In this document: positions 3,781-54,892 of the stretch, in pieces
Layout: every line of letters starts with the position of its first letter
Position numbering within the stretch: the stretch's first letter is position 1
Made by a program: the position numbers and the translations under genes
From: a virus
Strand: one strand, 5' to 3'
Virus record (IMG/VR): IMGVR_UViG_3300045988_159421
Length of the DNA: 64,000 bases
Notes under the pieces: generated by a model
Databases searched by the model: none
Told to the model about the DNA's origin: nothing
What the model saw: the letters and a program-made list of their open reading frames with translations, nothing else

Positions 3781-4740
3781 CTAACGACTTTCAGATTGAG
3801 TAGGTTTTGCATCTTTTATATTAGCATATACCCCCTCTTTTTTGCTTTCTAATACCCATAAATCATGGTATCTTCTGTAGTCCATAGCCCATGCATTTGC
3901 ACTTTGGTTAGTTTCAGGGTCAAATATTCTCATGATATCTTGTTTAGTTACTGCTAAAGGTAAATCTAAAGGCATGATTAAAAAGTTAACATCTAATCCA
4001 GAAGTTGCTTTAATGTATCCGCCAGTAGTTTGACCACTAGTCGAACCATCATATAATTGTATTGCACTGTATAATCTATTTTGTGGAACTGGTATAATTG
4101 GGCATCCATCAATAGCTGGAACTTTAGTGTTTATTCCACCTTGAGAAAAAGATACAGATGCTAATTTACCTAATGCAGCTTCTTCTATAGCTAGTTGTGT
4201 ATCATAGTTACACATAATAACTAGTGTTCCATTATGACATTTTTCTCTTAATGTTTTTATACCTTTTTTAATTTTAGCTATAACAGTTGAATTTGCTACA
4301 GTATATCCATATTCTACATTTTCATCATTAGCTACACCCATAGCAGTTGTTGCTAATTTACTTAATCTATAAGCATCTACTTCAGGTATAACTTTAGTTC
4401 TTTGAAATTCACCCATGATTGTTGTTGCTGTTAATACAAAGTTAGTTTCATCAACATCTTGAGAATCTATTTGGAATTTACGTCCTCTATCTTGTGTCAT
4501 TGTGTAAGTTTTGTATTCGTATTTGATAGATCCTTTAGTATATCCGCTATCAGCTTGTCTGTCATAGTTAGCAAGTCCGTCCATTGATAATTGAGGTATT
4601 TTAACTTCTTTACCACCTTTATATTTAACTTGACCTGCATTGGCATCCATCCAGCCTGTCAATGATTCATGTACCATTTGTTTGTCTAATGCATTTTGTA
4701 AAATTTGAGCATATGATATTGTGTTAGCCATGCTAAACAC
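3781..4740 (-). CDS. major capsid protein
   Basis: 319 aa, directly downstream of a coiled-coil scaffold-like ORF and upstream of the neck genes. Confidence 0.65.
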   Translation of the reverse strand: MFSMANTISYAQILQNALDKQMVHESLTGWMDANAGQVKYKGGKEVKIPQLSMDGLANYDRQADSGYTKGSIKYEYKTYTMTQDRGRKFQIDSQDVDETNFVLTATTIMGEFQRTKVIPEVDAYRLSKLATTAMGVANDENVEYGYTVANSTVIAKIKKGIKTLREKCHNGTLVIMCNYDTQLAIEEAALGKLASVSFSQGGINTKVPAIDGCPIIPVPQNRLYSAIQLYDGSTSGQTTGGYIKATSGLDVNFLIMPLDLPLAVTKQDIMRIFDPETNQSANAWAMDYRRYHDLWVLESKKEGVYANIKDAKPTQSESR

Positions 4741-4758
4741 CTCCTAATTAATTTATTT

Positions 4759-5445
4759 TTATGACAAGCCTAAAATTTGATTTACTTGAGCTTGAACAGG
4801 ATCAACAGAATCTCCATTTCCACCACCGCTAGGATTAAACGGATTATTTGTCATATCAGTTTTAAGGACTTCTTGTCCGTATTCACTAAATGCATTAGCT
4901 AATTTATCTATATTCTGTTTACTGATATCCATATCTTCACCAACTACAAACTCTAAGAAATTTTCGACTTGTTTTGGATATTTCATTTCTGCTAGATAAG
5001 TACGACTTTCTTTGATTCTACCTTCATGAGCTAACTTAGCTTCATTCTCTGCATTTTTCTTTTCTGTTGCAGCATTTTTTTCTTCCATCTCTTTAAGTCT
5101 TGTTTCCATAGCTTCCATTTGTTCTCTTTGAGCCTTTTGTTCAGGAGTTTCGTGTTTTGGAGCAGTTGCCTTTTTTATTTCACTTTCTATAATTCCTGGC
5201 ATCTTTTTAGTTTTAAAACTTTCAACTCCTTTAGATACTGCACTGTCTAATTGAGATTGGTTATATCCTTGTATTGCTTTATTTGTTTCAAGAATATTTT
5301 TATAATCTTCAACAGTTAATTTATTTACATCAAAAGGTATTTCTTTAACTTCTGCTATTCCATCAATCCCTTTTAAAATTTCAGTAACATCGGCAGTTTC
5401 ATCTATATCGTTTAATTTTTCTAACAAATCTTTTTTGATTATCAT
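4759..5445 (-). CDS. capsid scaffolding protein
   Basis: 228 aa, charged with a helical/coiled-coil middle (EQKAQREQMEAMETRLKEMEEKNAATEKKNAENEAK). Immediately precedes the capsid gene. Confidence 0.6.
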   Translation of the reverse strand: MIIKKDLLEKLNDIDETADVTEILKGIDGIAEVKEIPFDVNKLTVEDYKNILETNKAIQGYNQSQLDSAVSKGVESFKTKKMPGIIESEIKKATAPKHETPEQKAQREQMEAMETRLKEMEEKNAATEKKNAENEAKLAHEGRIKESRTYLAEMKYPKQVENFLEFVVGEDMDISKQNIDKLANAFSEYGQEVLKTDMTNNPFNPSGGGNGDSVDPVQAQVNQILGLS

Positions 5446-5934: not shown

Positions 5935-6194
5935 TTAATCATTCTTTATGTAATTTCTATTTATTTCCAAAGATATAAACTATCAAGGGACTTTTTACAA
6001 GTACCTTAGAATTGATTTTAGAAGGTTGAATTATGTAAACCTATCTTCTATTTCTTTTCCATTTAGTCTTTTTACTTATTCCTTGCATTCTTCTTACATA
6101 ATTGCTAAAACTTTCTGACATCCAATCAAACGGAATCATGTAATTCACCTCCCCTGCTTTAGATAGTCCTAATAATTGTTTTATATCAAACATA

Positions 6195-6461
6195 CTATTC
6201 CTTCTTTCTTTCTATCAATTCTGCTCTTTTTATATTCAATCTTACTACATAAACAATACTAAGTATTGATAGAACAATACTTGCTATCCAGTCTATAGCA
6301 TTTGATAGATGTATATGAAGTATTGCTAATACTATTGAAAATATTGTGTATGCTAGAGCGTATACTCCTACAAAGGCATATATGCCTAAAAGGAAATCAT
6401 AATCTTCTTTTCCATACTTATTTTTGCTCAACTTTGTAATTCTCCCATTTCTTATAAGCAT
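6195..6461 (-). CDS. small membrane protein
   Basis: 88 aa with two hydrophobic helices (LLGIYAFVGVYALAYTIFSIVLAIL and IASIVLSILSIVYVV). Confidence 0.4.
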   Translation of the reverse strand: MLIRNGRITKLSKNKYGKEDYDFLLGIYAFVGVYALAYTIFSIVLAILHIHLSNAIDWIASIVLSILSIVYVVRLNIKRAELIERKKE

Positions 6462-6684
6462 CTATGTACATTTCTTTTTTATCTCCATTGTATGTACATT
6501 CATAATACATTCCGTCAAATAAAGTTGTACTTAATAATGCTTTGTTATTTTGTAAAACTTTAGCACACCAAACCATAAACACGTCATCTTTTGTTATTTG
6601 CTTGTTATCTGATTTATCTAAATGATTATTCGTATATTTTACAACTTCATCTTTACACCAATCTAAAAATTGTTGTTCGTTCAT
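6418..6684 (-). CDS. hypothetical phage protein
   Basis: 88-aa ORF, co-directional with neighbours. Confidence 0.4.
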   Translation of the reverse strand: MNEQQFLDWCKDEVVKYTNNHLDKSDNKQITKDDVFMVWCAKVLQNNKALLSTTLFDGMYYECTYNGDKKEMYIDAYKKWENYKVEQK

Positions 6685-6848
6685 AAATTTCTCCTTTTAT
6701 CTCTTTTTAGGTATTTCTTATAATATCTTTTGTAATAAGGTGAGTTTTCACCATATGTTGCTAAATTAAATAAGATGTTTGGACTTATAACCCAGCCCAT
6801 TCTTACTCCTATTTTAAGTAATAAATCTTTCATGTTGCTCCTTCAATT

Positions 6849-7106
6849 CTATAGCTTAACTATTTTCCCATCTTTTAATGTATATCCTGTTTTACCTGAA
6901 TTTCTAAAATCATATATTTTATAAGCTTCTATGTAAACTTCGTCACATATACCAAGTTTAACAGCTAAATCTTTTATAACTAATGCATGGTCTGTACAAT
7001 AAGCAGCCATATCTTTGTCATTTTGTTTATAATAAAATTTATCTGCTTTCTTTTGTGTTTTAGCCATTTCTTGAGCAAATATATTTATAACTTCTTGTCT
7101 ATCCAT
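6849..7106 (-). CDS. hypothetical phage protein
   Basis: 85-aa ORF, co-directional with neighbours. Confidence 0.4.
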   Translation of the reverse strand: MDRQEVINIFAQEMAKTQKKADKFYYKQNDKDMAAYCTDHALVIKDLAVKLGICDEVYIEAYKIYDFRNSGKTGYTLKDGKIVKL

Positions 7107-7115
7107 ATTATCCTC

Positions 7116-7430
7116 CTAACAACCTATTATATTTATTCCGTATGCTTTTGCTATTTCATATTCTATTTTACATCCTCTTGCTTTATCCCAACCTTCTCCG
7201 AGATATATCATATCTGCTTGAGATAATAGTTGTATTGATTTACCTAAGTACCAAACTGGTATATGTTTATTAATTTCTCCAGGATAATCTTGTAAAAACG
7301 AATCTATAAATTCTATTTCTTCGTTTATTTTGGTTTCTATATCTTTTTTTATTTCACTTCTTTTTTCTAATATTTCTTCATCGGTTAATCCTCTCATTGG
7401 TTGAGATATAAATACTTTTTTCATTAACAT
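7116..7430 (-). CDS. DUF4406 / nucleoside 2-deoxyribosyltransferase-like protein
   Basis: N-terminus KKVFISQPMRGLTDEEI and C-terminal GWDKARGCKIEYEIAKAYGI resemble that fold family. Recognised from memory only. Confidence 0.35.
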   Translation of the reverse strand: MLMKKVFISQPMRGLTDEEILEKRSEIKKDIETKINEEIEFIDSFLQDYPGEINKHIPVWYLGKSIQLLSQADMIYLGEGWDKARGCKIEYEIAKAYGINIIGC

Positions 7431-13132: not shown

Positions 13133-13218
13133 TGGCGGAAAGGATAGGATTTGAACCTATGCACCTTACGGTCTAGAAGTTTAGCAAACTCCCCTCTTAA
13201 CCACTTGAGTACCTTTTC
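13133..13218 (-). tRNA. tRNA-Ser (anticodon GCU), long variable arm, encoded CCA
   Basis: Hand-folded cloverleaf. Anticodon stem GGAGT/ACTTC with loop TTGCTAA. T-arm ATAGG-TTCAAAT-CCTAT. One A:C mismatch in the acceptor stem. Confidence 0.75.
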
Positions 13219-13226
13219 TTATAAAA

Positions 13227-13303
13227 TGGTAGTAATAGTTGGACTTGAACCAACGACCTTGCGCTTATCAGACGCACGTTCTAACCATCTGAACTATATT
13301 ACT
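13227..13303 (-). tRNA. tRNA-Ile (anticodon GAU), encoded CCA
   Basis: Acceptor AGTAATA/TATTACT. Anticodon stem TGCGT/GCGCA with loop CTGATAA. T-arm GTTGG-TTCAAGT-CCAAC. 77 nt. Confidence 0.85.
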
Positions 13304-13312
13304 ATAATGTTT

Positions 13313-13390
13313 TGGCTGGCCTAGTGAGATTCGAACTCACAACAAACCATGGTCCGTAGCCATGTGCTCTATCCGTTGAGCTATAAGCCA
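13313..13390 (-). tRNA. tRNA-Arg (anticodon ACG), encoded CCA
   Basis: Acceptor TGGCTTA/TAGGCCA. Anticodon stem CATGG/CCATG with loop CTACGGA. T-arm GTGAG-TTCGAAT-CTCAC. Confidence 0.8.
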
Positions 13391-13399
13391 ATATTCTAT

Positions 13400-14262
13400 T
13401 TAGAAGGCTCGAGATTAAAGCCTTCTGTAGACACCTTTCGCAGCATTATTTATTCTCTGCTTATCCACGTACCTAATACGTATTGTCCATGACTGGTTGT
13501 ATTTTTATAGTGCCACAAAACCCTAACACGAGGCACTCTACTATAGTACTACTCAACACTTCGTATTCTGTCTGCCTTGCGAGCAACAAAGGTTTGCAAA
13601 ACCACCATGCAACTTCATGTTAAACGATTCACCCTTGGGAGGTGTCACGCACTAGATTATATCATGCAAGGATATTCTAGTATTAAGCCACTTTCATACT
13701 ATAAGGGAACAGACTTTTCCTTTTATTGTTTTGTTATCATAGACAATTTATCATCCAAAATTAATATTCTCTATGCCTGTATAAATCTGAATTAAATTTG
13801 ACAGACGTTGTGCTGTTCCTGAAGATTCGTTTCCTTTTGAGACACGAAATACTTCACAACATCAGTGTGTTTCATTGAATTCTTACTCCACGTTGTTAAT
13901 ACATACTCCAGCCCTTTCACTGTTTCACTATTAACAATGGTTAGTGCCCTTTGTTATCAGCATCGGACTATATAACCTCCTGATTATGTCTCGCTACATG
14001 ACCAATTTGGCGTGAGGTAAATTATTCAGTGCCACCTGAAAATCTTCGATATACGGTTCGCCTTTTCGAAAACTGTCCCTCTTGGGTTACGTAGTTATCT
14101 CCACTACTATCAATTCATGAAGACGTTGGACATTCAGTTCTGCTTAGATGGACTAGTTTAACTAGCGACATGTAGTCAGCATGCCTTTACACTGCTCACA
14201 CAATGCTATCCTAAAGATACTAAGCTACCTAAAATAGATTTAGATTTATTTTTTAAAACACA
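13400..14262 (-). ncRNA. candidate giant structured ncRNA (GOLLD/ROOL-class) between tRNA genes
   Basis: About 860 nt with no credible ORF, visibly more G+C-rich than surrounding DNA, and many local hairpins (for example AGAAGGCT/AGCCTTCT at 13402-13426). Flanked by co-oriented tRNAs and downstream of a box promoter. Strand is inferred from context. Confidence 0.5.
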
Positions 14263-14266
14263 TACA

Positions 14267-14340
14267 TGGCTGGGCGTAATAGATTCGAACTATTATTCCA
14301 GGAATCAAAATCCTGTGTCCTACCTTTGAACGAACACCCA
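14267..14340 (-). tRNA. tRNA-Gln (anticodon UUG), encoded CCA
   Basis: Acceptor TGGGTGT/ACGCCCA. Anticodon stem CAGGA/TCCTG with loop TTTTGAT. T-arm AATAG-TTCGAAT-CTATT. Confidence 0.8.
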
Positions 14341-14453: not shown

Positions 14454-15035
14454 TTATTGATATTCTTTCATTCTTCTAATTAGTGTAGCTTTGCTTATTC
14501 CTGTTACTTCTGTAACTTGCTTATAACTCATGCCACTTTGCTTTAGATCAATGGCATGCTTAATTTGTTTGTTTGAATACTTTTGCGGTCTACCTTCTGT
14601 AAAATCTTCTCTTTGTTTTGCTATCGCCTTACCTTCTTTTGTTCTTTCAACTATCATATCTCTTTCAAATTCAGCAAATGCAAGGAAAATAGTTCTTGTT
14701 AATTTTCCATTAGGTGTATTATCCATTAATCCTAAGTTTACTATATGAACTTTTATATCTTGTTCTAGTAACTTATCTATTATGCTTAATCCGTGTATTG
14801 TACTTCTAGCAAATCTGTCTAATTTAGTTACTACTAATGTGTCTCCTGGTTTTAATTGTTTAAGAAGTTTATCGAAATTTTTTCTATCTTCTTGTTTCTT
14901 TGTTCCAGTAAAAGAATCAACTACGATATTTTCTTTTAAACATCCATTTGCTAATAGTATTTCTGTTTGGCCTTCTAATGAGTTACCATCTTTCTTTTGT
15001 GAATAAGTACTAACTCTTGCATATCCGTATTTCAT
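14454..15035 (-). CDS. small serine recombinase (resolvase/invertase family)
   Basis: N-terminal [13 protein letters not shown] catalytic-serine motif, 193 aa, C-terminal HTH ([22 protein letters not shown]). Confidence 0.85.
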
Positions 15036-15135: not shown

Positions 15136-16401
15136 TTAAATATACGCAAATGTATATCCATAAGTTGTTTTTTGTTTTCCTTGTAACACTTTTTCTATGC
15201 TTTTTCTTGGAATATCAAGTTTTCTTGCACAAACTCCTATTCCTTCAATAATTTCTTCTGAATTATCTTTTAAATTTGTTGCTTTAATAGTTTTCTTAGG
15301 AGTAACTTTTTTACTATATTTAGCTTTTATTGCTAATATAGAAGTATAATCCTTACTTTCTATATATGGAATTAACTGTTGTTTTACATTTATAGCATCT
15401 TCTTCTGTTTTAAAATGACCTATTGGTATCTGATTTCCATTAAAGGTTATTCTTAAAAACCAGCTTTTAGCTTTAACATCATAATTAATGCCTTTTACAT
15501 CAGATTTATACATAGTAGTATTTTTCTTGTTTCGCATATTATGTAAAAAAGAATAATCTATTTTCTGTCTTTCACGCATTTTTTCATATGTTTTTCTGCA
15601 ACAATCCATATATTTTTCCATTTCAATATGTGTTGTTATTCCTATTTGTTTACCTTTTAAAAACTTTTCTTTATTTCGCAAATCATTAACTTCTTTAAAA
15701 ATCAAAGAAAAATCTTTAACATTGCTTTTTTTTAAAATTCTTTTAATTGTATCTTGAGAAAGTTTATATTTTTCACTAATTTCATTAAGTAAGTATTTTT
15801 TAGAATATAAATCTTTAACTATATTTTCATTTCTAGTTTCTTTATTATTTATAATTTTAAGTTTTTCATTTAAATCAGATCTAACATCTACCCATGAATT
15901 AAGATATTTAACATTATAAATAACTTTTTCTCTTACTCCAGTTAATCTAGCTATTTTCTTTATAGAGATTGGATTATTTTCTAGTTCCGATAACATTTCT
16001 TTAACTTTAGCAATTTGATGTTCTGTATAATCACTTCTTTCTCTAGTTACCTTCTTTAAATTTTCTAATCTTTTCTTTCGTATTTCCTCTGGAATCTCAT
16101 TTAAAAAATAATCTCCACCTTCTGTCATATTAAATCCATTATTATAAGTATCATATTTTTTTATATAATACTTTTCTAAATCATTTAAAATGTCAAGTTC
16201 ATCACAATAATGTATAGCTTTAAACTTAAAAGCACCTTCTCCATATTTATTCCAACTTCTTTGAAGATATTCATTGTCATGATTTCCTCTGTTCAAAGCA
16301 CTTATATGACTTTTCCATCTTTTTTCAAAATCTTGAATTGTTTGCCCTATATACATATCGCCTGTTACTACATTTGTTATTGAGTAAATTCCAAAAGGCA
16401 T
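15136..16401 (-). CDS. free-standing GIY-YIG homing endonuclease with an AP2-like DNA-binding C-terminus
   Basis: N-terminus GIYSITNVVTGDMYIGQT (GIY...YIG), followed by R..H and N motifs. Repeated HTH-like modules. C-terminal GINYDVKAKSWFLRITFNGNQIPIGHFKTEEDA is AP2-like. Confidence 0.8.
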   Translation of the reverse strand: MPFGIYSITNVVTGDMYIGQTIQDFEKRWKSHISALNRGNHDNEYLQRSWNKYGEGAFKFKAIHYCDELDILNDLEKYYIKKYDTYNNGFNMTEGGDYFLNEIPEEIRKKRLENLKKVTRERSDYTEHQIAKVKEMLSELENNPISIKKIARLTGVREKVIYNVKYLNSWVDVRSDLNEKLKIINNKETRNENIVKDLYSKKYLLNEISEKYKLSQDTIKRILKKSNVKDFSLIFKEVNDLRNKEKFLKGKQIGITTHIEMEKYMDCCRKTYEKMRERQKIDYSFLHNMRNKKNTTMYKSDVKGINYDVKAKSWFLRITFNGNQIPIGHFKTEEDAINVKQQLIPYIESKDYTSILAIKAKYSKKVTPKKTIKATNLKDNSEEIIEGIGVCARKLDIPRKSIEKVLQGKQKTTYGYTFAYI

Positions 16402-27034: not shown

Positions 27035-28915
27035 CTAATCATATCCATGTTCTTTTTTAAATTCAATAAACCATTTTCTTAAAGCTAAGTATTTTTCTTC
27101 TCTAGTATCCACTTCTTCTTTTGTAGGTTTTCTACCACAACTATGCTTATTACCTTCGGGACAATATCCTAATTTTTCACAGTTAGGAACTAAATATGTT
27201 TTGTATCTCGGCTCTATTTCTACTACTTGTTTGACCATTTCTTTTACTATTGTTCTAATTGGCAACTCTGCTCGTGTGCAAAGTCGTATATTTGCTAGAT
27301 GCATTAAACATTCTAGGTTAACTGCTATATTACATTCTGTTGCTACTCCAATAGGTAATATTGTTCTAGCTATCTCATTAGCTTTTTCTCCTGTTATACC
27401 ACCATCTTCTAAGAAAGTTTGTATATAGTTATATTGGGCATTAACTATATCTTCTTGGTCTTTTATTGTCTTAACCATATATGGACTATCTAGTAACTCT
27501 GGAGCTATATATATACTTACCTTTCCATCTTTATTACAATATCTTAAGCTTTGTACATTAGTTACAAATCCTTGTGTATGTCTTACTATCTGATCTACGC
27601 AATTTCCACACCAAACTGCTTTCCCATTTCTTCTTACAAATATTATATGGTTAGGAACATTTACACAATAAACTTGGCCTTCGTAATGTTTAACCGTTTT
27701 ATGTTTTTTCAATGATACATGAGGGTATTTATTTCTAGTGTTGAAACTTACATTGATAACATATCCTACATAATTACATTTTACTGTTTTGTTGCATATT
27801 TGTATTTTCTCACCAACCAAATTTTCATTTCTAGTGTATATCATTGCAGACCATCCTGCTAAAAAGCATAATTGTTGCAATTGATTAGCCAATATTTCGG
27901 AACAAGTATAAAATTTGCCACATCCATTTTTGTCTAAATGCCCATCTCCTCTGAAATATTCATTTAAGAAAATCTGAGCATATTCTTTATTAAATTCATC
28001 ATATATATTTAATGGTATATATTTGTTAGATGCAGTCCCTAATTGTTTTAAAAATTTGCCTAATGTTAAACTATTAAATCTTATATCTCTATCTGTTACA
28101 GTTGGTGCAAATCCTAATTTTATTATTATGTCTTGTATATCTTCTTTTGTATGATTTTCTATATTTTTTTTACAATTTGTTTGTGATATTGAAATAACAT
28201 ATTTATTTTCTTTTTCGTTATAATATGTTGATCCATCAGATAAATACCATGCTAAAAATTTATAAAATGTTTTTCTATCTAATTCTAAATCTCCAGTATA
28301 CATATTACAATCTCCACCATTATTTGTTTTTTTCTTATATGTATAACCTTTAATTTTATATATATTCGGTAAATTATTTATACCTTTATATTCAAATTCC
28401 TTTGTAAGTTTTATTCTATTTACATTTATATCCTTTATAGGTGTTAAATAAGTTTTATCCTTGTCTTTTCTAACATCATATTTTTTATAATATATATTAT
28501 GGTTCTCAGTTATTGCAAGGTCGACATTTTCACTTTTAATAAAAAACATATTCCCATTATAGTTTTCCACTATTTTTTCTTTTATTTTATGAAATTCCAC
28601 CTTTTTAGTTGTATCATTTAAAGTTGCTACTATTTCATCTTCTTTTATGTCTTTGATAAACTTCCAGCCTTCTAAGGTTAATATTTCAGTTTCTTCATCG
28701 TAACAACTTCTAGGTATATTTCTAAGAGTAAACCAAGCATATAAATGTCTACTTCCACTTAGATGTCCACTCTTAAGACAGCTTTCTCCAACTTTCTCTG
28801 CATATTTTGGATCAGTGTTATAACATACTGTAGCCATAAGGCCATGCTTTTTAACAAACTCTTTTACTTCTTCTGGGTTTTGTAGTTCTATTTTAAAATC
28901 ATTTAGTGTAAACAT
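27035..28915 (-). CDS. thyX: FAD-dependent thymidylate synthase ThyX interrupted by an intein
   Basis: The exteins (70 + 188 aa) rejoin as ...[30 protein letters not shown], recreating the ThyX RHR...S..RY signature region. 626 aa in total. Confidence 0.8.
27602..28705 (-). mobile_element. LAGLIDADG-type intein within thyX (368 aa)
   Basis: Starts with Cys71 ([10 protein letters not shown]) and ends ...VWCGN, followed by a +1 Cys. Two LAGLIDADG-like blocks: [10 protein letters not shown] and NEYFRGDGH. Confidence 0.7.
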
Positions 28916-29677: not shown

Positions 29678-30985
29678 CTATAATATAAGTTTAAAATCAT
29701 CTAAATCAACTTCAAAGCCTTCTAGTTCAATACTTCTAGGTTTATCAATTAAATCAGGTGTCATAAAGAATGAAGTCATTTTCATATCCTTAGTAAATTT
29801 AGGTCTTTTAGTAGCATTTGTACCATATAATACTTTAGCTCTTAGTACTTCATAACTATAACCTTTGCCAGCCTTTTCAACACTTTTAATAACGTTATTT
29901 ATAGACTCTGTATAAGCGTTTGTATAAGGCTGTAAGAAATAATTGAATATTTCATGCTTATTATTGTTGTAAGTTCTTTGAAGGTCTTTAAAAGCTTTAA
30001 AATCATCTGGTATTCTACATTCCCATTCATAGTATCTTTGAAACGCTTCATATCTATCTTCTGATGTATAAATATCTCTTATTGTTTCTTTTAACCAATA
30101 TGCTACACCAAGCTCTGGGAACTCCTCAAACCAAGTATCTCTAAGTATTATGTCTTTTTCTTTTAGGTCTTCTTTATTTTTTAATAATACCCATCTGTCA
30201 TTTGTTAAAATTCGTTTCCTATCATTAGGCAAATTAGATTTAACTTGTTTTCTAACAGTATCTAAAGCTCTTTGAGCATATTGGATAACGTGAAATTTAT
30301 CAACTACTACAGTAGCACTAGGTATTAATTCTCTACAAGCATATCTATAACCACTCCACATATCTATTGTAACTACTTCTATATCCTTATAACCTTCCAT
30401 GCTCTGAATTGTATTTTTAACAGTTTTTTTAAGATTGTCTTCGGTTATTTCAAGTAATTTATTATTTTCTGTGTCTGTGAATACACCTCTCATTTTCTTA
30501 TTTAAATGAGCCTCATCTATTCCTAATACTCTAGGTGCTTTTATAATTCTATCTGCATCTAATCTAGCTATTTCTTCTTTAAAATATTTTCTTACTGAAG
30601 TATGAGATAGTCCACAATCATATCCTACTTCTAAAAATGGCTTCCTAAGGCTTTGTTGTTGAATATATTGCTTTAGTCTAAGAGTAACTTTATCATTTCT
30701 CTCAATACTGTAGAAAGGCTGATAAAAGGTTTTACCACAACAAGGACATTTATATCTGATATGTTTTAAAACTAATATAACTGGTTTTCCATGAATAGGT
30801 ATATCTTGAATTTCTCTTTCCTTACTACTATGTATCGTAAAATTCCTTGTATCTCCCATAACAGGTGCTTCATCCCATAAACATTGGGTACATACTATTG
30901 GTCTTTCTTTTGCTACGATTGTAAACTTATAATAATATTCATTTTCTTCTTTTTTAATTACTTCAAATTCTGGTAAATTTAACAT
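29678..30985 (-). CDS. ISL3-family transposase
   Basis: 435 aa. N-terminal Zn-finger (CTQC...CPCCGK), central DDE region (GIDEAH...VVTIDMW...DKFHV). Paralogous to ORF 48825..50138. Confidence 0.75.
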   Translation of the reverse strand: MLNLPEFEVIKKEENEYYYKFTIVAKERPIVCTQCLWDEAPVMGDTRNFTIHSSKEREIQDIPIHGKPVILVLKHIRYKCPCCGKTFYQPFYSIERNDKVTLRLKQYIQQQSLRKPFLEVGYDCGLSHTSVRKYFKEEIARLDADRIIKAPRVLGIDEAHLNKKMRGVFTDTENNKLLEITEDNLKKTVKNTIQSMEGYKDIEVVTIDMWSGYRYACRELIPSATVVVDKFHVIQYAQRALDTVRKQVKSNLPNDRKRILTNDRWVLLKNKEDLKEKDIILRDTWFEEFPELGVAYWLKETIRDIYTSEDRYEAFQRYYEWECRIPDDFKAFKDLQRTYNNNKHEIFNYFLQPYTNAYTESINNVIKSVEKAGKGYSYEVLRAKVLYGTNATKRPKFTKDMKMTSFFMTPDLIDKPRSIELEGFEVDLDDFKLIL

Positions 30986-39166: not shown

Positions 39167-39225
39167 TACTCGTCACTCTCCTAACTTTTTAGTGTTTAAT
39201 TATGTTTAATTATAGACAAATGTGT

Positions 39226-40473
39226 TTATATCACACTATCTAACCAATAAATTTTATTATATTTCCAAAGTAATCTACATTTTCTTACATTTACTTTTTT
39301 GCAATGTTTTGTAGGACTTTGAAAATTTAATGCGTTCAAATGTGGATATAATGCTGTAACATATCCTTTATGAGTTTCTCCATTTCTGTAAGTATATTCA
39401 ACCAAATCTCTATGTTTAATTCCTAATACATTATCTGTTTTTGCTTTTGATTTTCTACGCATCGGTTTAATCATCCATTCTTTTATATTGCAAGTATCTG
39501 GAAAACAATTTGTTATACAAATAGCATCGTTTGAATGAGATTTTTCTATATTCCATTCAATTCTTTTATTTGCAGTATCTCCACCTGTTGTAAGATGTAA
39601 TATTCCTAATTGTTTAATATTTTCTCTAAGATAATTTTTACCTTGCATGACATGCATTGCATAATCAAATCTTTTTGGCTTACTTTTTATTTTGGTGAAA
39701 TATCTCTCTTCAAATTCTCGTTCTTTCCCTTCTGTCTTTTGATGACAAGAAGAACAAAGAGTAATGAGATTCCCAATAGTATTTGCTCCACCAAATCTCT
39801 TTGCTCGAATATGATGAACCTCAAGTACAGTATTTGTTTTTCCACATTCTTGACATTTACAACTATCTCTTAATATTGTCGCTTTTCTAAGATTTTCATC
39901 TAATCTATTATTCTTCTGATATTGCCAATTATAAGGTTTATATCCATCGGTCATTGCTCTTATATCTATTGCTACATCTTCAAGATAATATTCTTTAATA
40001 TTTATCCATTTATTTAATTGATATAAAACTCTAAGAATAGAATCTTTCTTTTGTTTAATACTTGGCGCTAATCTATTAGTTTTTTTTGAAGATGCTCTAT
40101 TATTGAATCTAGGTTTACGATATCTTTTATGATATCTACGGTATTGTCTATATCCTCTACGAACATCCATTAAGTGTTTTACATCTTGTCTTTGTTCAAT
40201 AGTTCCTTTAAATACAACTTTATTTTTACTTGGACATTTTTGAACAATTGCTATTCCAACATGAGAACTACCATCGTCAATTCCACAAACCATATGACTT
40301 TCATCTTCGTCATCAGGTTCAACTTCTTTTTCTAACTGAATTACCATAGGATATTTACTTTTTAATTTTGCTCGACCTTTTCTAATCAAATACCAACCTT
40401 TATTTACTTTAGTTGGAGCTAAAGGTCTATTGTTTTTATCTACAACAAAACAATATTCAATTTTATTTTCCAT
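39226..40473 (-). CDS. iscB: IscB (OMEGA-class RNA-guided RuvC/HNH nuclease)
   Basis: PLMP-like N-terminus ([23 protein letters not shown]). Ruv[15 protein letters not shown]. Arg-rich bridge helix [25 protein letters not shown] insert CQECGK...LEVHHI...[10 protein letters not shown]. RuvC-III HSNDAI. 415 aa. Confidence 0.75.
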
Positions 40474-40775
40474 CTCTGGACACCTTCCTTTCGGAGAATT
40501 TTTCGTCTTGGGAATGTCAAGTAGAGGATATGTGTTTCCCTGTTATCAATACAGGACATTAGCATTGTTTCTTGGTTAGCACTCACAGAGTTTCAGACTG
40601 ACGATTACATCTAAAAGTGTGTGTTTACCTTACTACTCAACATAGTTCATATCTGCAATATATGTTTCCATAAAAGCAGTCACTAACCCTTGAAACCTCT
40701 TGTTAAGCCATATACAAAAGACTAATGTGTCCACTTTTCTATATGTTTGACTATATATTTCTATGTATATAGTCA
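40474..40775 (-). ncRNA. candidate omega-RNA (HEARO-type) upstream of iscB
   Basis: About 300-nt ORF-free, comparatively G+C-rich leader directly 5' of iscB. A perfect 9-bp hairpin GACTATATA/TATATAGTC sits at its distal end (40749-40774). Exact extent is inferred. Confidence 0.5.
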
Positions 40776-41015
40776 CTTAACAATTAGTCCTGTTGCTAGT
40801 AACAATATGCGTTTAACTTTTTCTTTCCTTTGTTCTTCTGTTAGATAGTTATTTTTCTTAGTCAATCTATCTTGTTTATGTCTCTTAGCTTTTTCAAAAT
40901 TAACCTTTCCTCTAACTGAAGATAATGTTCGCCCTAAATATTTTGCTATTTCTTCATCTGATATTAATTTATAATTTTCTTCTAAAAACTTTTCTTCTTC
41001 TATGCTCCATTTCAT
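40773..41015 (-). CDS. small SANT/Myb-like protein
   Basis: WSIEEEKFLEENYKLISDEEIAKYLGRTLSSVRGK. Confidence 0.4.
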   Translation of the reverse strand: MKWSIEEEKFLEENYKLISDEEIAKYLGRTLSSVRGKVNFEKAKRHKQDRLTKKNNYLTEEQRKEKVKRILLLATGLIVK

Positions 41016-41023
41016 TTTTACAC

Positions 41024-42973
41024 CTATTCATTTATTTTTATTTCTTTATCCTCTGTGACTACCAACTTAATCAATTGACCTTTAGTATCTGCTATTTTAT
41101 TTACACATTCACTATTATCAATGAATATAGGTGCGACTAATTCGAAATACTCGGATAAAGTGTTTATTATATCTATACCAGCATTTATTTGACCTGCAGT
41201 ATTTGCATTAGAAAATGGTACTCCATTTATAGTTGCCTCACAGGTTTCTGCAATAGCTCCGTTAACTTGAGTAGAGAATAATTTAAAGCTTACGTTCTTA
41301 AAATGCTTATTTATATTTTTTTCTAAAAGTTCTACTCTCTTAGTAATAAACTTTTCATATAGCATTATAAGACCTTCTTGTCTTGCTATTTCTACTCCGA
41401 TTTGTTTTTCCTCTGCTTTTAGATCTTCTATTCTTTGATTTACTTTCTTGTTATTTTTAACTGCTCCTAATTGACTATATAACCCTTTTAGTTGTGTATT
41501 AATTTCTCCTTTTTCAATTAAAAGTCCTGATTTATCTGGATATGTATCATCTTCTTGTAAACTTTCTAAAAGCTTGTTGTTTTCTCTTTTAAGTTTTAAT
41601 ATTTTTTCTTTCGTTGCATCATTAGGCGTATAAGAAATACCTCCTATTTGGCTTTCTAGCTGATTTATTTTTTCTTTCTTGATGTTTATATTATTTTCTA
41701 TCTCAGAAAGCTTTAAAGTATAATTTTCGATATCTTCTTGAATATCTTCTTGTTCTTTAACTTTTATTTTGCCTTTTTCTATTACTTCTTCTTTTCTTCT
41801 AGCTTTATCAAGATTGAAGTTTTTCTCTAATTCTGCTTGTTTTTCTTCTATGTCTGATTCATCAAAAGGTCGTTTACAAGTAGGACACTCTGTTTTTATA
41901 CTACTAAAATCAACTTTCTCAGCTTGAATTCCACTAAATTCTTCTCTTAATTTAGCAGCTTCATTTTTTAGCATTTCAAACTTTCTAGTTAATCCATCTA
42001 TTTTATATTCACATTCATTTTTCTTTTGTTGTTGTGAATATAAATCTTTTTCTTCTTTTCTTCTTTCTTCTTCTAATATTCTTACTTTATTGTCATAATC
42101 TTTTCTGTCAGCTTGTCTTTCTTCTTCGATTAAGTTTTCATTTTCACTTATTTTTTTCATTACTTCATTTCTTTTAGCTAATAATTCTTTACTACTATTA
42201 GCTATATCGCTTATTTTATTGTCTATATCTTTTAACTTACTTTCTTTAAATGCTATTTCTTTTTCAACTTCTTTTACATCTAAATCAACTACTGTTTCCA
42301 TTAATTCCTCGATTTTATAAGGAATTGACTTTTTATTTTCTCTTAGTTTTTTAATGCTACCTTTTTTACTATCTATTAGCTTTGATACATCTTCTTTTTC
42401 TAGATCTTGTTTTACTAAATTTAAATCTTTATCAGTTTTTACAACATCATCTACTGATATATTCCCTCCAGCAACTTCTAAGATGACTTTTCTTTGTTCT
42501 TTCCAACCAAGAGAATGAAAATGGAAAGGGTTAGTTAATAATTTAAATGTTTCTTCGTCTGCTATTTCATTTATTTGCTTGTTATAATCTGATTTTTTAA
42601 CTGGAATATCATCAATTTCATATTTTGTTGTATTCCCATCAAATACTTTTTCGCTTTCTCCTCTTCTAGAGGTCCATTTTTCTTTATATTCTTTTGATAG
42701 TTTTACTTCTAATCCATCTACTTCTAAGATGCCTGTTACATGAGGATTTAAACCTCTTATATATTCGTTATTTTCATCTAAAGGTTTTAACTCAAATTTG
42801 CTATCTCCTTTACTGTTTTTATCGAATAATAACCATGTAAAAGCATCAAATATACTTGATTTTCCAGTTGCATTTTGGCCTGATATTGTTGTGATATCTT
42901 TGAAATTTATGTCTAATTTTGATATGCCTTTAAAATTGCTTATTGATAGTTGTTTTAATTTTATCTCTTTCAT
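41024..42973 (-). CDS. SbcC/Rad50-like SMC-type ATPase
   Basis: Walker A GQNATGKSS, a long coiled coil with a CPTCKRP zinc hook, and C-terminal Walker B IFIDNSE. Confidence 0.75.
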   Translation of the reverse strand: MKEIKLKQLSISNFKGISKLDINFKDITTISGQNATGKSSIFDAFTWLLFDKNSKGDSKFELKPLDENNEYIRGLNPHVTGILEVDGLEVKLSKEYKEKWTSRRGESEKVFDGNTTKYEIDDIPVKKSDYNKQINEIADEETFKLLTNPFHFHSLGWKEQRKVILEVAGGNISVDDVVKTDKDLNLVKQDLEKEDVSKLIDSKKGSIKKLRENKKSIPYKIEELMETVVDLDVKEVEKEIAFKESKLKDIDNKISDIANSSKELLAKRNEVMKKISENENLIEEERQADRKDYDNKVRILEEERRKEEKDLYSQQQKKNECEYKIDGLTRKFEMLKNEAAKLREEFSGIQAEKVDFSSIKTECPTCKRPFDESDIEEKQAELEKNFNLDKARRKEEVIEKGKIKVKEQEDIQEDIENYTLKLSEIENNINIKKEKINQLESQIGGISYTPNDATKEKILKLKRENNKLLESLQEDDTYPDKSGLLIEKGEINTQLKGLYSQLGAVKNNKKVNQRIEDLKAEEKQIGVEIARQEGLIMLYEKFITKRVELLEKNINKHFKNVSFKLFSTQVNGAIAETCEATINGVPFSNANTAGQINAGIDIINTLSEYFELVAPIFIDNSECVNKIADTKGQLIKLVVTEDKEIKINE

Positions 42974-45317: not shown

Positions 45318-46255
45318 TTTTCTATGCTGCCGCCTCCCATTTCATCTAATTCTTTTTGTAATTCGTCTATTTCATCTAAGTCATCTTGACTTACTGGTTT
45401 CATTTTCTCGGGATCTATATAACCTTGATATTTTTGTAAGTCCTCTAATATGTTTGAATTGTTATTGTCTTGATGTTTATTTGAGTTGTAGTTACTGAAG
45501 TTGTCTTTTAGTGGAAAAACTCCTTGCCAACAATTTTCAATCGAGTTTTCCAGTATTTTTATTTTGATATCATCTGTTGTTGCTAACTTATCTAGTTTAT
45601 TTAGTATTCCTTTTAAGGCTCTTTCTGTAACAGGCTTTTTAATGCTCTTTCGCATTTTCATAAAATCTATTATTGTTTCCTGTAAGAAAGAGTTAGAAGT
45701 ATACTCATTTATAAGAACATCTAAATCAGTTCTTTTTTTCTTTTTTTCTTTTTTATTAAGACTGTTATTATTAACACTATTAATATTTAAACTGTTATTA
45801 TTAAGACTGTTAATATTAGTGTATTCGTTTTCGAGATATTCATTTTCGATATCTTTATTTTCGTGATATTCATTTTCGATATCTTTATTTTCGTGATATT
45901 CATTTTCGATATCTCTAAAATTAATACATCGGTCTCTTTCATCCATTATGATTTCATATATATTTTTTGCTTTTAAATTACCTGATTTTATTCTTTCTAC
46001 TTTTATGTACCCGGATTCTTTTAATGTTTTTAAGTGTTTAGTAAATCTATTGATTGAGATTCCTAATTCTTCACACATTAAATCTCTACTTGGATAACAT
46101 GTTTTTTTATCTCCAGCGAAGGCTATTAAATATGCATAAATTGCTTTTGCCTCAATTGAAAGATTCTTATCTCTCATAACTATCTTAGGTATTATTCCAT
46201 ACCCATCACGTAAAATACTATTTTTGTTGTATTTTACCTCCATTGAATCTGTCAT
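45308..46255 (-). CDS. replisome organiser (wHTH N-terminus plus DnaD-like C-terminus) with internal repeats
   Basis: N-terminal GIIPKIVMRDKNLSIEAKAIYAYLIAFAG...GISINRFTKHLKTLKESGYI. C-terminal DnaD-like LQETIIDFMKMRKSIKKPVTERALKGILNKL. Tandem ENEYHENKDI repeats. Confidence 0.6.
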   Translation of the reverse strand: MTDSMEVKYNKNSILRDGYGIIPKIVMRDKNLSIEAKAIYAYLIAFAGDKKTCYPSRDLMCEELGISINRFTKHLKTLKESGYIKVERIKSGNLKAKNIYEIIMDERDRCINFRDIENEYHENKDIENEYHENKDIENEYLENEYTNINSLNNNSLNINSVNNNSLNKKEKKKKRTDLDVLINEYTSNSFLQETIIDFMKMRKSIKKPVTERALKGILNKLDKLATTDDIKIKILENSIENCWQGVFPLKDNFSNYNSNKHQDNNNSNILEDLQKYQGYIDPEKMKPVSQDDLDEIDELQKELDEMGGGSIEKWL

Positions 46256-48824: not shown

Positions 48825-50138
48825 ATGAATATACTAAATTTACCAGAATTTGAAGTTTTAGACACAATACAAGATGACCATGATATGACGGTAATAGTAA
48901 GACCAGTTAAAGCGCCTGTGGCTTGCCCAGAGTGTGGTGGAGTTGAATATTATAAGCATGGTAAATCCAAACGATTTGTAAGGGATTTAAATAGCTTTGG
49001 CAAACGAGTAGGGATTGAAATACATACACACAGATATAAATGCAGATACTGCGGTACTACATTTAGTCAACATTACAAAAGTATTGACGATAGAGATAAA
49101 ATCACTATTCGTTTAAGAGAGCAAATAGAAAAAGAATCCCTTAAAAAGCCATTCGCCAATATAGCAGAAGAATATAGTGTTTCTCCTACTACAGTAAAGA
49201 GAATATTTAATGCTTACATAGAAAGGTTAGAAAAGGATATGACATTCCTCACTCCAGTTATATTAGGTATAGACGAAGCACATCTAAATAAAAGCATGAG
49301 AGCCGTTTATACCGATATAATTGGACGTAAGGTATTGGATATCCAGCCAAGCCGTAAGAAGTCCGATGTAAAGGCTTTTCTGAGTAAATTGCCTAACAAG
49401 GAGAATATAGAAGTAGTAACCATAGACATGTGGAGATATTACAAAGAGGCAGTATATGAGGAGTTGCCAAAAGCTCAGGTAATAGTTGATAGATTCCATG
49501 TAATACAATTAGTTAACAATGCTTTAGAAGGTGAGAGAAAGTCATTTAAAGGCTCTTTAGACAGAAAGCAAAGGTCTAAGTTGTTAAAAGATAGATTCTT
49601 GCTACTGAGGAATAAAGAGGATTTAAATGCTAGACAGATTTGGGATATGCAACTAATGTTTTTAGACTTTCCACAGTTAAAGTTAGCCTATGAGTTAAAG
49701 GAACAATTTAGGGATATCTATAAACACGATAACCGAGAAGATGCTCTAAGGGCTTATGAGGACTGGAAGAAGGCAGTACCAAAGGATATGAAATACTATC
49801 AAGATGTTATTAAAACAGTTGATAACTGGCAGTATGAGATATTTAACTACTTTACTTGTAGAATCACAAATGCTTATACAGAGAGTTTAAACAACTTGAT
49901 TAAGAACATCGAGAAAGCTGGTAGAGGTTACTCTTTTGAGGTACTTAGAGCAAAGGTGCTATTTGGTACAAGTGCTACTAGAAAACCTAAATACACAAGA
50001 GCAAATACAAGTAACAAAACATATACATTTACTACGGCATTTAGTTGGAATGATTTCGTAGGAAGTACAAAATTAACAGAAGGATTTGGAGTAGATATTC
50101 CACAACTACTAGAGGTATTAGAGAGTGATAAGTTTTAA
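48825..50138 (+). CDS. ISL3-family transposase (second, divergent copy)
   Basis: 437 aa. LNLPEFEV N-terminus, CPECGG...CRYCGT zinc finger, GIDEAH...VVTIDMW...DRFHV DDE region. Confidence 0.75.
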   Translation: MNILNLPEFEVLDTIQDDHDMTVIVRPVKAPVACPECGGVEYYKHGKSKRFVRDLNSFGKRVGIEIHTHRYKCRYCGTTFSQHYKSIDDRDKITIRLREQIEKESLKKPFANIAEEYSVSPTTVKRIFNAYIERLEKDMTFLTPVILGIDEAHLNKSMRAVYTDIIGRKVLDIQPSRKKSDVKAFLSKLPNKENIEVVTIDMWRYYKEAVYEELPKAQVIVDRFHVIQLVNNALEGERKSFKGSLDRKQRSKLLKDRFLLLRNKEDLNARQIWDMQLMFLDFPQLKLAYELKEQFRDIYKHDNREDALRAYEDWKKAVPKDMKYYQDVIKTVDNWQYEIFNYFTCRITNAYTESLNNLIKNIEKAGRGYSFEVLRAKVLFGTSATRKPKYTRANTSNKTYTFTTAFSWNDFVGSTKLTEGFGVDIPQLLEVLESDKF

Positions 50139-53968: not shown

Positions 53969-54892
53969 ATGGCTAAAAAAGATGTTCAATTTATAGGCTT
54001 TGATGGTGGTAGAGGTTACATTAAGGCTTATACAGAAGTAGATGGAGAGGCAAAACAAACAATATTTAAGTCAGTATATGGTGATGGACGTTCAGGTAAA
54101 GTTGACTTTGAAAATTACGAAAAACCTAAATACTTAAATATAGAAGGTGAAGACTATTTCGTTGGTTTATTAGCAGAAAGAGAATCTTATTCTTCTATAA
54201 GAAATTCACAAGATTCAAAAACAAGTGATACTATGAAGATATTATTTGCATCAGCATTAAACGATATAGCAGTAAAAGATACTGTAAAAGTGGTATTTGG
54301 AGTTCCATATAAAAACTATAAGAAATCAGTATTAGCTGACATAGTAAATACATATAAAGGCGAAACAATCACTATAAAAGACAATATAACAAATGCAACT
54401 AAGAAAATATTTATAGAAGATGTAACAATCGCTAGAGAGGGCGATGCGGCTTTATACTATGCTATTAATGGAAAGGTAAATAAAGATAAGCCAGTAGGAC
54501 TTGTTAACGTTGGTTTCAGAACTATGGAACTATCATATTTTGATAAAGGTTTCCAATTTAATGACAGATTATCTAATACTGTTGAATACGGAAATAGTAC
54601 AATGCTAAAAATAATACAAGATAATTTAATGGCAAGTGGAATTGCAAAAAGTGTAAACGAAATAGATAGTTCTGATGATTATGATCTACTTAAAAAGAAA
54701 GCATATAAATTAGGTTCTGAAAAAGTAAATCAAATAGTAGAAGAAAATTGGATAAACAAAGATGAAATGAAGTTATATTTAGCAGGTGGAACTTCTTTAA
54801 ATCTTGAACCTTCTGATGACTTTGATAGAGTTGATAATTCTCAAATGGCTACTGCAATTGGATTATTTAAGTTTGCAAAATTAAAATTTTAA
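53969..54892 (+). CDS. parM: ParM-like actin-family plasmid segregation ATPase
   Basis: FIGFDGGRGYIK phosphate-1 motif, VNVGFRTMEL, and C-terminal YLAGGTSL. 307 aa. Confidence 0.7.
   Translation: MAKKDVQFIGFDGGRGYIKAYTEVDGEAKQTIFKSVYGDGRSGKVDFENYEKPKYLNIEGEDYFVGLLAERESYSSIRNSQDSKTSDTMKILFASALNDIAVKDTVKVVFGVPYKNYKKSVLADIVNTYKGETITIKDNITNATKKIFIEDVTIAREGDAALYYAINGKVNKDKPVGLVNVGFRTMELSYFDKGFQFNDRLSNTVEYGNSTMLKIIQDNLMASGIAKSVNEIDSSDDYDLLKKKAYKLGSEKVNQIVEENWINKDEMKLYLAGGTSLNLEPSDDFDRVDNSQMATAIGLFKFAKLKF

Follow-up and report, generated by a model that had tools for sequence, protein, structure and literature searches.

A probable non-autonomous IscB-omega RNA element, polymorphic among near-identical gut phages

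The viral DNA analyzed here, a stretch of 64,000 nucleotides from IMG/VR record IMGVR_UViG_3300045988_159421 (hereafter the window), carries a mobile element of 1609 bp at positions 39183-40791(-). From its first base, the element consists of the motif AGGAC, an omega RNA, the gene iscB, a hairpin and an AT-rich tail. We consider it very probable that this is a non-autonomous element of the IS200/IS605 type (ISC/OMEGA), comprising IscB and its omega RNA, which is polymorphic in the phage population and poised to cut and convert alleles that lack it. Its place is between recT and a small native open reading frame (ORF), apparently within the early/recombination operon of a phage or phage-plasmid of gut Firmicutes.

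Results

Ends and copies of the element

The limits of the element were taken from a comparison of about 150 copies, together with empty sites from three contexts. A BLAST comparison of the region with all loci gave similarity edges at 40791+/-3 and 39195-39203 in dozens of otherwise unrelated contigs. In the 5' junction alignment every copy starts with (A)GGACTAATTGTTAAG, and the sequence upstream is unrelated. This conserved segment is the 5' strand of the P1 helix of the omega RNA, which places the start of the RNA scaffold at the first base of the element. The first five bases, AGGAC (40787-40791(-)), are conserved at this edge in almost every copy. Towards the other end of the element, the loop of an imperfect hairpin contains the iscB stop codon; the AT-rich tail (39183-39212(-), from junction alignments), an AGGAG-type Shine-Dalgarno sequence and a downstream start codon follow in this order. 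The Shine-Dalgarno sequence stands at a nearly fixed spacing from the element, whichever gene lies downstream, and AGGAG or GGGAG comes directly after the tail in 32 of 39 independent contexts. In the window it is the AGGAG at 39178-39182(-), the Shine-Dalgarno sequence of recT (TTG start at 39166).

Viral contigs provided at least 39 distinct flanks, and at least seven insertion sites are present in one metagenome-assembled genome (MAG) of the Eubacteriales. In this bacterial chromosome seven different sites obey the rule X/AGGAC...tail/RGGAG, where the slashes denote junctions. Hairpins occur 17 nt from the right end (RE, 40749-40774) and about 30 nt from the left end (LE, 39213-39242), and both vary between lineages. 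The LE hairpin, TAGAtagTGTG-atataaa-CACAtttgTCTA (39213-39242(-)), is the imperfect one around the iscB stop codon; it was read from the sequence, other lineages also have a hairpin here, and it possibly serves as an LE subterminal hairpin.

Relatives were collected by IscB (77 viral loci, 57-100% identity) and by a conserved 23-mer of the leader (36 loci). An identical iscB is found in about 20 contigs, while the family as a whole spans the same 57-100% range of protein identity. Genome matches to this IscB family are Clostridia-type gut Firmicutes MAGs. Staphylococcus myoviruses (e.g. LC557520 and PV017447) contain a homologous iscB with its leader at about 67-68% DNA identity; the family is thus widespread in cultured phages, but the records name it inconsistently, as 'HNH endonuclease', 'hypothetical protein' or 'HEARO'.

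Some copies deviate from the common form. Contig L002 (GenBank MT835533, a human faecal phage) has at 4001-4497 a nuclease-less, guide-RNA-only miniature of 497 bp, which retains the whole omega RNA, the first ~20 and last ~30 codons of iscB and the tail. Internal deletions of this kind are also seen in L260 and L078. In L080 (~4600-4640) the tail is followed by AGGAC, not AGGAG, as if the downstream motif had mutated to the element's own 5' motif. The contigs L085, L088, L082 and L110 have a 12-nt direct repeat, TTTTAAGAAGGA, at both junctions, which is longer than the AGGA common elsewhere.

Empty sites in near-identical phages

Empty sites were sought in viral contigs via the neighbouring RecT, and the search returned phages with 98-100% identity in both flanks. 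At the window site seven sister contigs are free of the element (L118, L120, L121, L123, L125, L128 and L129). The empty allele reads ...CGCATATTGTTACTAGCAAC AGGAG TTTTATTAGATT AGGAG AGTGACGAGTATTG(recT), and the window allele reads ...CGCATATTGTTACTAGCAAC AGGAC TAATTG...AAAAAGTT AGGAG AGTGACG.... The two alleles split at the fifth base of AGGAG/AGGAC.

Two further contexts have clean junctions. Context A is represented by eight occupied and 17 empty alleles, a count that leaves out the distant 34% match L164, and context B by eight occupied and 72 empty alleles. In context A, ...CGTAGTT/AGGAGAAG has become ...CGTAGTT/AGGAC...TTTTATAA/AGGAGAAG; in context B, ...CAATTAA/GGGAGAGT has become ...CAATTAA/AGGAC...AACTAA/GGGAGAGT. 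It follows from these junctions that the inserted DNA extends from AGGAC to the tail and lies exactly 5' of RGGAG. Neither target-site duplications nor inverted repeats are present at the clean junctions of contexts A and B.

Among the empty alleles of context A (L142-L162), several have one or two substitutions in the guide-matching 16-mer, 6-7 nt from the motif RGGAG, with AAAATTGTAGTT or AAAATTTTAGTT in place of AAAATCGTAGTT. These may be escape variants or neutral polymorphism.

On its upstream side the element is separated from the SbcC-like gene by a native phage ORF of 80 aa (40773-41015), which has no Pfam match and reads five codons into the element. The ORF ends in ...ATGVLLD* in the empty allele and in ...ATGLIVK* in the window, where five codons and the stop are supplied by the element. 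We considered this ORF as a part of the element and rejected the idea, since it is present in the empty-site phages. The initial annotation of this DNA had placed the nuclease between the SbcC-like gene and recT; this is correct for the recT side, whereas on the other side the 80-aa ORF intervenes. The C. perfringens phages phiCp-D and BG3P, in which the NTPase gene and recT are adjacent, were rejected as empty sites, because at about 67% identity they are too divergent for junctions to be read. In four close relatives of the window phage (L026, L027, L115 and L126) the SbcC-like gene and the 80-aa ORF are separated by a further insertion of about 280 bp, which is absent from the window (equivalent position 41029-41035).

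Guide and candidate target-adjacent motif

The sequence upstream of AGGAC is unrelated among the 39 contexts, and conservation stops exactly at AGGAC. With a scaffold that begins where the element begins, the guide must lie in the DNA that flanks it upstream, as is canonical for IscB. In the window the guide-encoding flank identified by junction comparison is TATTGTTACTAGCAAC (40792-40807(-)), phage DNA from the 3' end of the 80-aa ORF, directly 5' of the omega-RNA scaffold. This 16-mer is unique in the window, and in the seven element-free sister contigs it is followed by AGGAG. The same holds for all three contexts: empty alleles have the guide-matching sequence followed by RGGAG, occupied alleles have it followed by AGGAC. 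The self locus, i.e. the occupied allele of the window, reads AGGACTAA.

From these alignments we infer that the target-adjacent motif (TAM) is RGGAG, 3' of the target on the iscB strand; on the opposite strand this reads CTCCT and adjoins the LE. The AGGAG behind the element in the window matches it. AGGAC, 1 nt off the TAM AGGAG (RE ending ...GTCCT), would then be its counterpart within the element, resembling a transposon-encoded motif (TEM).

The leader is a structured RNA of the HEARO/omega type

Upstream of iscB lies a leader of about 318 nt (40474-40791(-)) without a credible ORF and with a G+C content of 35.2%, compared with 28.1% for the window. The initial annotation had described about 300 nt of ORF-free, relatively G+C-rich sequence as the likely source of an omega RNA, and both parts of this description are borne out. 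The Rfam model HEARO (RF02033) matches 40496-40731(-) over the full model (1-211) with 31.3 bits and an E-value of 4.5e-4 in a 2.4-kb search, albeit below the gathering score. The 5' third of this alignment is poor, and the 5' domain contains lineage-specific hairpins.

Covariation was analyzed in 40 non-redundant leaders, which are mutually less than 97% identical. RNAalifold predicted 63 pairs in 12 helices, and compensatory double changes occur in 37 of the 63. Standard pairs fill 97.8% of the cells; this value drops to 30-45% after the 3' partners are slid by 1-3 columns, and none of 500 column shuffles reached any of five structure measures. The window copy has canonical pairs at 62 of the 63 consensus positions. 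Folded alone, the window leader is better than all 100 shuffles (z = -2.9), and its P1 stem is the same as in the consensus.

The P1 domain (40693-40790(-)) is defined by the covarying helices 1 and 2 of the consensus and by the minimum free energy fold. Its 5' strand (40775-40790) is paired with 40693-40708, and two hairpins lie between these strands; the main P1 helix (helix 2) has compensatory changes in seven of nine pairs. The first hairpin, GACTATATA-CATAGAAA-TATATAGTC (40749-40774(-)), is a perfect one of 9 bp, evident in the sequence and in the minimum free energy fold. Its sequence and stem length differ between lineages, and L002 has no hairpin here. The second, CATATAGAAAAG...CTTTTGTATATG (40709-40745(-)), was found in the fold, and its stem is kept in other lineages despite changes. 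At the 3' end of the RNA a small terminal hairpin, UCC-GAAA-GGA (40483-40495(-), helix 12 of the consensus), overlaps the Shine-Dalgarno sequence GGAAGG of iscB, so that the omega RNA runs into the ribosome-binding site of the nuclease gene. The IsrB omega RNA has a similar terminal hairpin containing the Shine-Dalgarno sequence (PMC9581776).

Together, the full-length HEARO match and the covariation in relatives indicate that the leader is a genuine structured RNA of the HEARO/omega type. By the Rfam criterion it is best described as a divergent HEARO subfamily with an enlarged 5' domain, and the score of only 31 bits is explained by the larger P1 insert in the ~318-nt omega RNA.

Three other assignments within the leader were rejected. 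The HEARO match starts at 40731, which could be taken as the start of the scaffold, with the guide at about 40732-40747; however, this stretch is conserved among copies and forms hairpin B, and conservation reaches 40791. The 9-bp hairpin had been recognised by the initial annotation, which likened it to the subterminal hairpins of IS200/IS605 elements. The hairpin is indeed perfect and located at 40749-40774, but the reading as a terminal feature apart from the RNA fails, given that the hairpin lies within P1 and that L002 does not conserve it. Finally, the conserved GGACTAATTGTTAAG is not a common target or guide, as it pairs with 40693-40708 with covariation.

The ORF encodes an intact IscB

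The iscB ORF (39226-40473(-)) encodes 415 aa. The order of its parts is that of IscB: a PLMP-like N-terminus, RuvC-I, an arginine-rich bridge helix, RuvC-II, an HNH insert, RuvC-III and a C-terminal TAM-interaction region. The translation shows the arginine-rich stretch, the series CKCQECG...VHHI...N...CSSCH with two CxxC motifs, and SHSNDA. Pfam assigns residues 9-187 to RRXRR (PF14239, E = 7e-49) and residues 207-247 to HNH (PF01844, E = 1e-12); with this domain content the ORF is an IscB and not a plain HNH protein.

The best PDB match is HfmIscB (9k2z) with an E-value of 7e-241 and 81.5% identity over 410 of the 415 residues. TbaIscB, several OgeuIscB entries (7xht, 7utn), IsrB and one type II-D Cas9 rank lower. 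The alignment to IscB structures spans RuvC-I to RuvC-III, and the catalytic positions are kept with respect to OgeuIscB: D66 in RuvC-I, E165 in RuvC-II, H220/H221 and N235 in HNH, and H313/D316 in RuvC-III. The sequence therefore points to an intact IscB, and the domain order originally read from the letters stands, with catalytic residues that are not degenerate and a profile class of RRXRR plus HNH. In the alignment to IscB structures the 415-aa protein has no REC insertion and the window has no array-like repeats; the marks of a CRISPR-Cas9 or of a CRISPR-associated IscB, i.e. an array and a REC lobe, are thus lacking.

Search for a transposase

Pfam scans of the 94 window ORFs of at least 55 aa contained no Y1_Tnp (PF01797). 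A Y1 profile derived from four TnpA sequences verified against the PDB was also run on the six-frame ORFs of the window and of 267 loci (1.9 Mb). The profile found none in the window, and its single match in the 1.9 Mb, L250 6041-6454, lies outside any IscB element. The absence of a Y1 transposase from the window, which had been noted on first inspection, is thereby upheld.

The Y1 gene of L250 is a part of a separate tnpA-tnpB unit (6041-7245), which is 1.7 kb away from the IscB copy; a PIN-type toxin-antitoxin pair (4309-4936) lies between them. L250 belongs to the MAG Eubacteriales CM_BacCAG1528.41, the genome with at least seven insertion sites of this IscB family. Its tnpA is a candidate for a trans-acting transposase, and a host TnpA may plausibly be supplied in trans.

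An iscB without tnpA is the norm and not a special feature of this element. Linkage of the two genes was reported for about 1.5% of iscB loci (PMC10055086), and elsewhere for 'only a few' (PMC9755519). With no Y1 TnpA encoded, as in the other ~98.5% of iscB loci (PMC10055086), the element is classed as non-autonomous.

Phage context

The window represents the genome of a tailed phage and contains structural genes, a holin and an amidase. Its replication and recombination module encodes a single-stranded DNA-binding protein (SSB), a DnaC-like loader, an SbcC-like ATPase, RecT and a metallo-beta-lactamase (MBL) nuclease; related modules occur in C. perfringens phages. An actin-like partition protein of the ALP_N type is encoded at 53969-54892(+), with HTH_36 Rep-like proteins nearby, and this combination fits an extrachromosomal phage-plasmid lifestyle. 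Inside an HTH_36 Rep-like ORF, positions 45753-45914 contain tandem 15/30-nt repeats (up to 98% matches), which either are iteron-like or encode a DIENEYHENK peptide repeat.

Other features of the window were also noted. A GOLLD RNA (Rfam RF02032, 187 bits, above the gathering score) is located at 13406-13864(-). It adjoins four tRNA genes at 13136-13390 and 14270-14340(-). GOLLD and HEARO reportedly come from the same discovery paper of 2009, and the window contains both. A 626-aa ORF at 27035-28915(-) matches ThyX (Thy1) in the C-terminal portion alone (profile positions 70-190). Its long internal insert, which begins with a Cys-containing motif, suggests that thyX has been interrupted by an intein or a homing endonuclease. 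Two ISL3 DDE transposase genes with Zn_ribbon_ISL3 and DDE_Tnp_ISL3 domains, at 29678-30985(-) and 48825-50138(+) (E = 2e-53 and 6e-62), represent further mobile elements, which are unrelated and not adjacent to the IscB element. A small serine resolvase (Resolvase plus HTH_7, 14454-15035(-)) adjoins a GIY-YIG/NUMOD endonuclease (15136-16401(-)), and the pair may be another homing-type cassette. There is no evidence that ties this resolvase, 24 kb off, to the IscB element.

Discussion

Proposed mechanism

The anatomy of the locus suggests the following course of events. Read-through transcription of the phage operon would yield an omega RNA with the flank TATTGTTACTAGCAAC as its 5' 16 nt. Such a supply of the guide is probable, since promoter-like signals around the element do not exceed chance and the element is co-oriented with the neighbouring genes; an orientation bias in line with read-through supply was noted by Meers et al. 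(PMC10055086). The complex of IscB and omega RNA would recognise the 16-mer together with RGGAG, either in an empty allele or in the donor joint left after excision. Its own locus would be spared, since AGGAC follows the 16-mer there. A break in an element-free co-infecting genome, or in an excised sister copy, could then be repaired by recombination with the occupied copy, so that the element is copied or restored (homing). We speculate that the neighbouring RecT, SSB and SbcC-like protein could aid this repair. To colonise new sites, the element most likely depends on a host Y1 TnpA acting in trans. The junctions fit such an enzyme, as the TAM CTCCT lies at the LE, the RE terminates in GTCCT, and both target duplications and inverted repeats are absent.

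The scheme follows what is published for IscB-bearing elements of the IS605 family. In those elements the left end is flanked by the TAM, and when TnpA excises the element without a scar, the TAM comes to adjoin the RE flank. The resulting donor joint is cut by IscB, and the two proteins read the same TAM (Meers et al., PMC10055086). Judged by its anatomy and by this behaviour of the family, the ribonucleoprotein of the window should cut empty alleles and spare its own locus.

Several observations weigh against the interpretation as an active element of this type. The HEARO match stays below the gathering score of 83 bits and is absent from the gathering-threshold Rfam scan of the window. The window allele is not a clean insertion, as it lacks 11-17 nt that the empty allele has. 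The simplest account of this loss is a deletion from one AGGAG repeat to the other, after which the element would have abutted the recT Shine-Dalgarno sequence. A guide length of 16 nt was assumed from published IscB systems. The candidate TAM was drawn from junctions alone, and a Shine-Dalgarno sequence is expected before most genes anyway; for this reason the TAM draws its weight only from the fixed spacing and from the empty sites of the three contexts. Around the element there are eight promoter-like sites, where 11.8 are expected, and no terminators, so that none of these signals is above chance. The RE-end and LE-end hairpins are dissimilar, unlike those of IS608, and the RE-end hairpin doubles as an omega-RNA hairpin. 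The Y1 profile, as described above, had no match inside any IscB element.

Alternative explanations

The element could be just as described and yet reach new sites without a Y1 transposase, through IscB breaks followed by repair at AGGA microhomologies or through phage recombination. AGGA is present at both junctions in all copies, the L088 group even has its 12-nt direct repeat there, and no TnpA was found near any copy. Furthermore, the junctions in the window use two AGGAG motifs 17 nt apart, as microhomology-mediated repair could give. However, IscB depends on a match to its 16-nt guide and would leave naive sites uncut. When an element inserts cleanly and exactly at a 5-nt motif and has almost the same motif at its opposite end, this is the TAM/TEM signature of the IS200/IS605 TnpA (PMC10055086). 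A Y1 TnpA is also encoded in the MAG that has seven or more insertion sites. We therefore regard spread without the transposase as unlikely.

Slightly less likely still is an inactive relic, i.e. an element stranded without a transposase, with a nuclease and an RNA that no longer work. The lack of a TnpA in the window, the 11-17-nt junction deletion and the degenerate family copies L002, L078 and L260 would agree with decay. Against it, the ORF extends over its full 415 aa and has every catalytic residue, 62 of the 63 omega-RNA pairs are canonical, and about 20 contigs carry an identical copy. Compensatory changes in the RNA and the 57-100% conservation of the protein point to selection, and a valid guide has its AGGAG target in sister phages.

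The initial annotation had left open whether the locus is a non-autonomous element or a domesticated nuclease. In the latter case the phage would keep an IscB that is no longer mobile, with a guide selected for attacking competitors or the host or for defending against them. The genome does resemble that of a phage-plasmid, as judged by the ALP_N partition protein, and no transposase was found in the window. The guide also matches sister phages without the element, although the cutting of competitors would then be a by-product. This second option is nevertheless very improbable. The guide is the element's own flank in all 39 of 39 contexts, otherwise identical phages differ by presence or absence of the element, and discrete transposon-like junctions are found at many unrelated sites, bacterial chromosomes included. 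Moreover, decayed copies exist, and there is no sign of a fixed locus or of a guide aimed at a foreign essential gene. The first option, a non-autonomous element, is the one favoured by its discrete ends, its at least 39 contexts, the empty sites and the guide taken from its own flank.

A protein-only HNH homing endonuclease with a merely regulatory structured 5' untranslated region, as might be read from the GenBank name 'HNH endonuclease' of the Staphylococcus phage homologues and from the overlap of the terminal hairpin with the Shine-Dalgarno sequence, is already refuted by the domain content, i.e. the RuvC-I/II/III motifs and RRXRR, as well as by the 81.5% identity to an IscB solved as a member of an RNA-guided complex family and by the match of the RNA to HEARO, the established IscB guide (PMC9755519, PMC10055086).

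Comparison with known systems

The non-autonomous IscB element resembles several known systems. HfmIscB (9k2z), from the compact IscB clade, shares its length class and motifs in addition to the 81.5% identity, and differs as another allele from another contig. The PDB chain of HfmIscB has VAHI where the window protein has VHHI. This is presumably a catalytic mutation introduced by engineering, and on this reading H220 would be the catalytic histidine of HNH. A literature search found no paper behind HfmIscB or PDB 9k2z, and for TbaIscB/YnpsCas9 it returned only unrelated uses of the names. OgeuIscB (7xht, 7utn, 8csz) has the same domain order and catalytic residues, an omega RNA with a 5' guide and a TAM 3' of the target, and its large omega RNA replaces the REC lobe. 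It is, however, a distant relative (E ~1e-22) of 496 aa with expanded WED/TI domains, and its TAM is NWRRNA, in contrast to the RGGAG suggested here.

In ISGst5 from Geobacillus stearothermophilus (PMC10055086), the omega RNA also lies upstream of iscB and is bounded by the RE, and the guide is the RE flank. An LE-adjacent TAM common to transposase and nuclease, a donor joint that is the target, and mostly non-autonomous copies are further points of agreement. The two differ in host and motif: ISGst5 is chromosomal and has the AT-rich TAM TTCAT, whereas the element described here has a phage host and, as its candidate TAM, CTCCT/AGGAG, the Shine-Dalgarno sequence. HEARO RF02033 (Weinberg et al. 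2009) has a P1 with two hairpins, a long-range helix with a multistem core and a 3' tail before the ORF, as does the leader; the difference is in the score, here below the gathering threshold, and in the poorly aligned 5' domain.

According to a 2026 review most TAMs of IS607 TnpB are AGGAG or GAGGG (PMC13565253), i.e. the motif proposed here. IS607-family elements nevertheless encode TnpB, which has RuvC only, use a serine recombinase as transposase and have their guide at the 3' end. Phage homing endonuclease genes (SegF, Mob, GIY-YIG/HNH) are likewise intergenic in operons, polymorphic, and expected to cut the element-free allele and be copied. Their target is read by the protein, whereas here it would be read by guide RNA and TAM, with self and non-self set by the insertion itself. 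With respect to the IS200/IS605 (ISC) family, the element has clean TAM/TEM junctions and multiple sites and lacks an encoded Y1 TnpA. Viral residence is common, accounting for more than 16% of IscB/HEARO loci (PMC9755519). A phage-borne IscB without TnpA is thus already documented, and the element is ordinary for a known family.

Significance

The locus itself adds little to what is known: IscB with omega RNA is well characterised, a homologue with 81.5% identity has been solved, and both viral residence and the lack of TnpA are documented. The added value lies only in the candidate Shine-Dalgarno-like TAM and in the natural pairs of occupied and empty alleles. For genome editing, a compact 415-aa IscB with a predicted 5-nt purine TAM is of minor practical interest. 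As a test bed, near-identical gut phages with and without the element are available at three sites, with guide, target and candidate TAM readable from the sequence. This makes phage-to-phage homing by OMEGA systems directly testable, while the 2026 review treats 'non-restorative homing' as theoretical (PMC13565253).

A broader idea, which we offer tentatively and hold to be somewhat less probable than its opposite, is that the TAM of this IscB family is RGGAG, the core of the Shine-Dalgarno sequence, and that the family works as a gene drive, guided by RNA, among gut phages in co-infection without a transposase of its own. If this is true, the allele pairs in three phage lineages are snapshots of the drive, possible escape alleles with guide mismatches included. 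In Firmicutes phages with densely packed genomes, a Shine-Dalgarno TAM would offer a harmless landing pad before almost every gene, since insertion keeps the upstream stop codon and the downstream Shine-Dalgarno sequence. It would explain the precise intergenic insertions between stop codon and Shine-Dalgarno sequence, and it suggests that such elements may spread without harm through compact phage operons.

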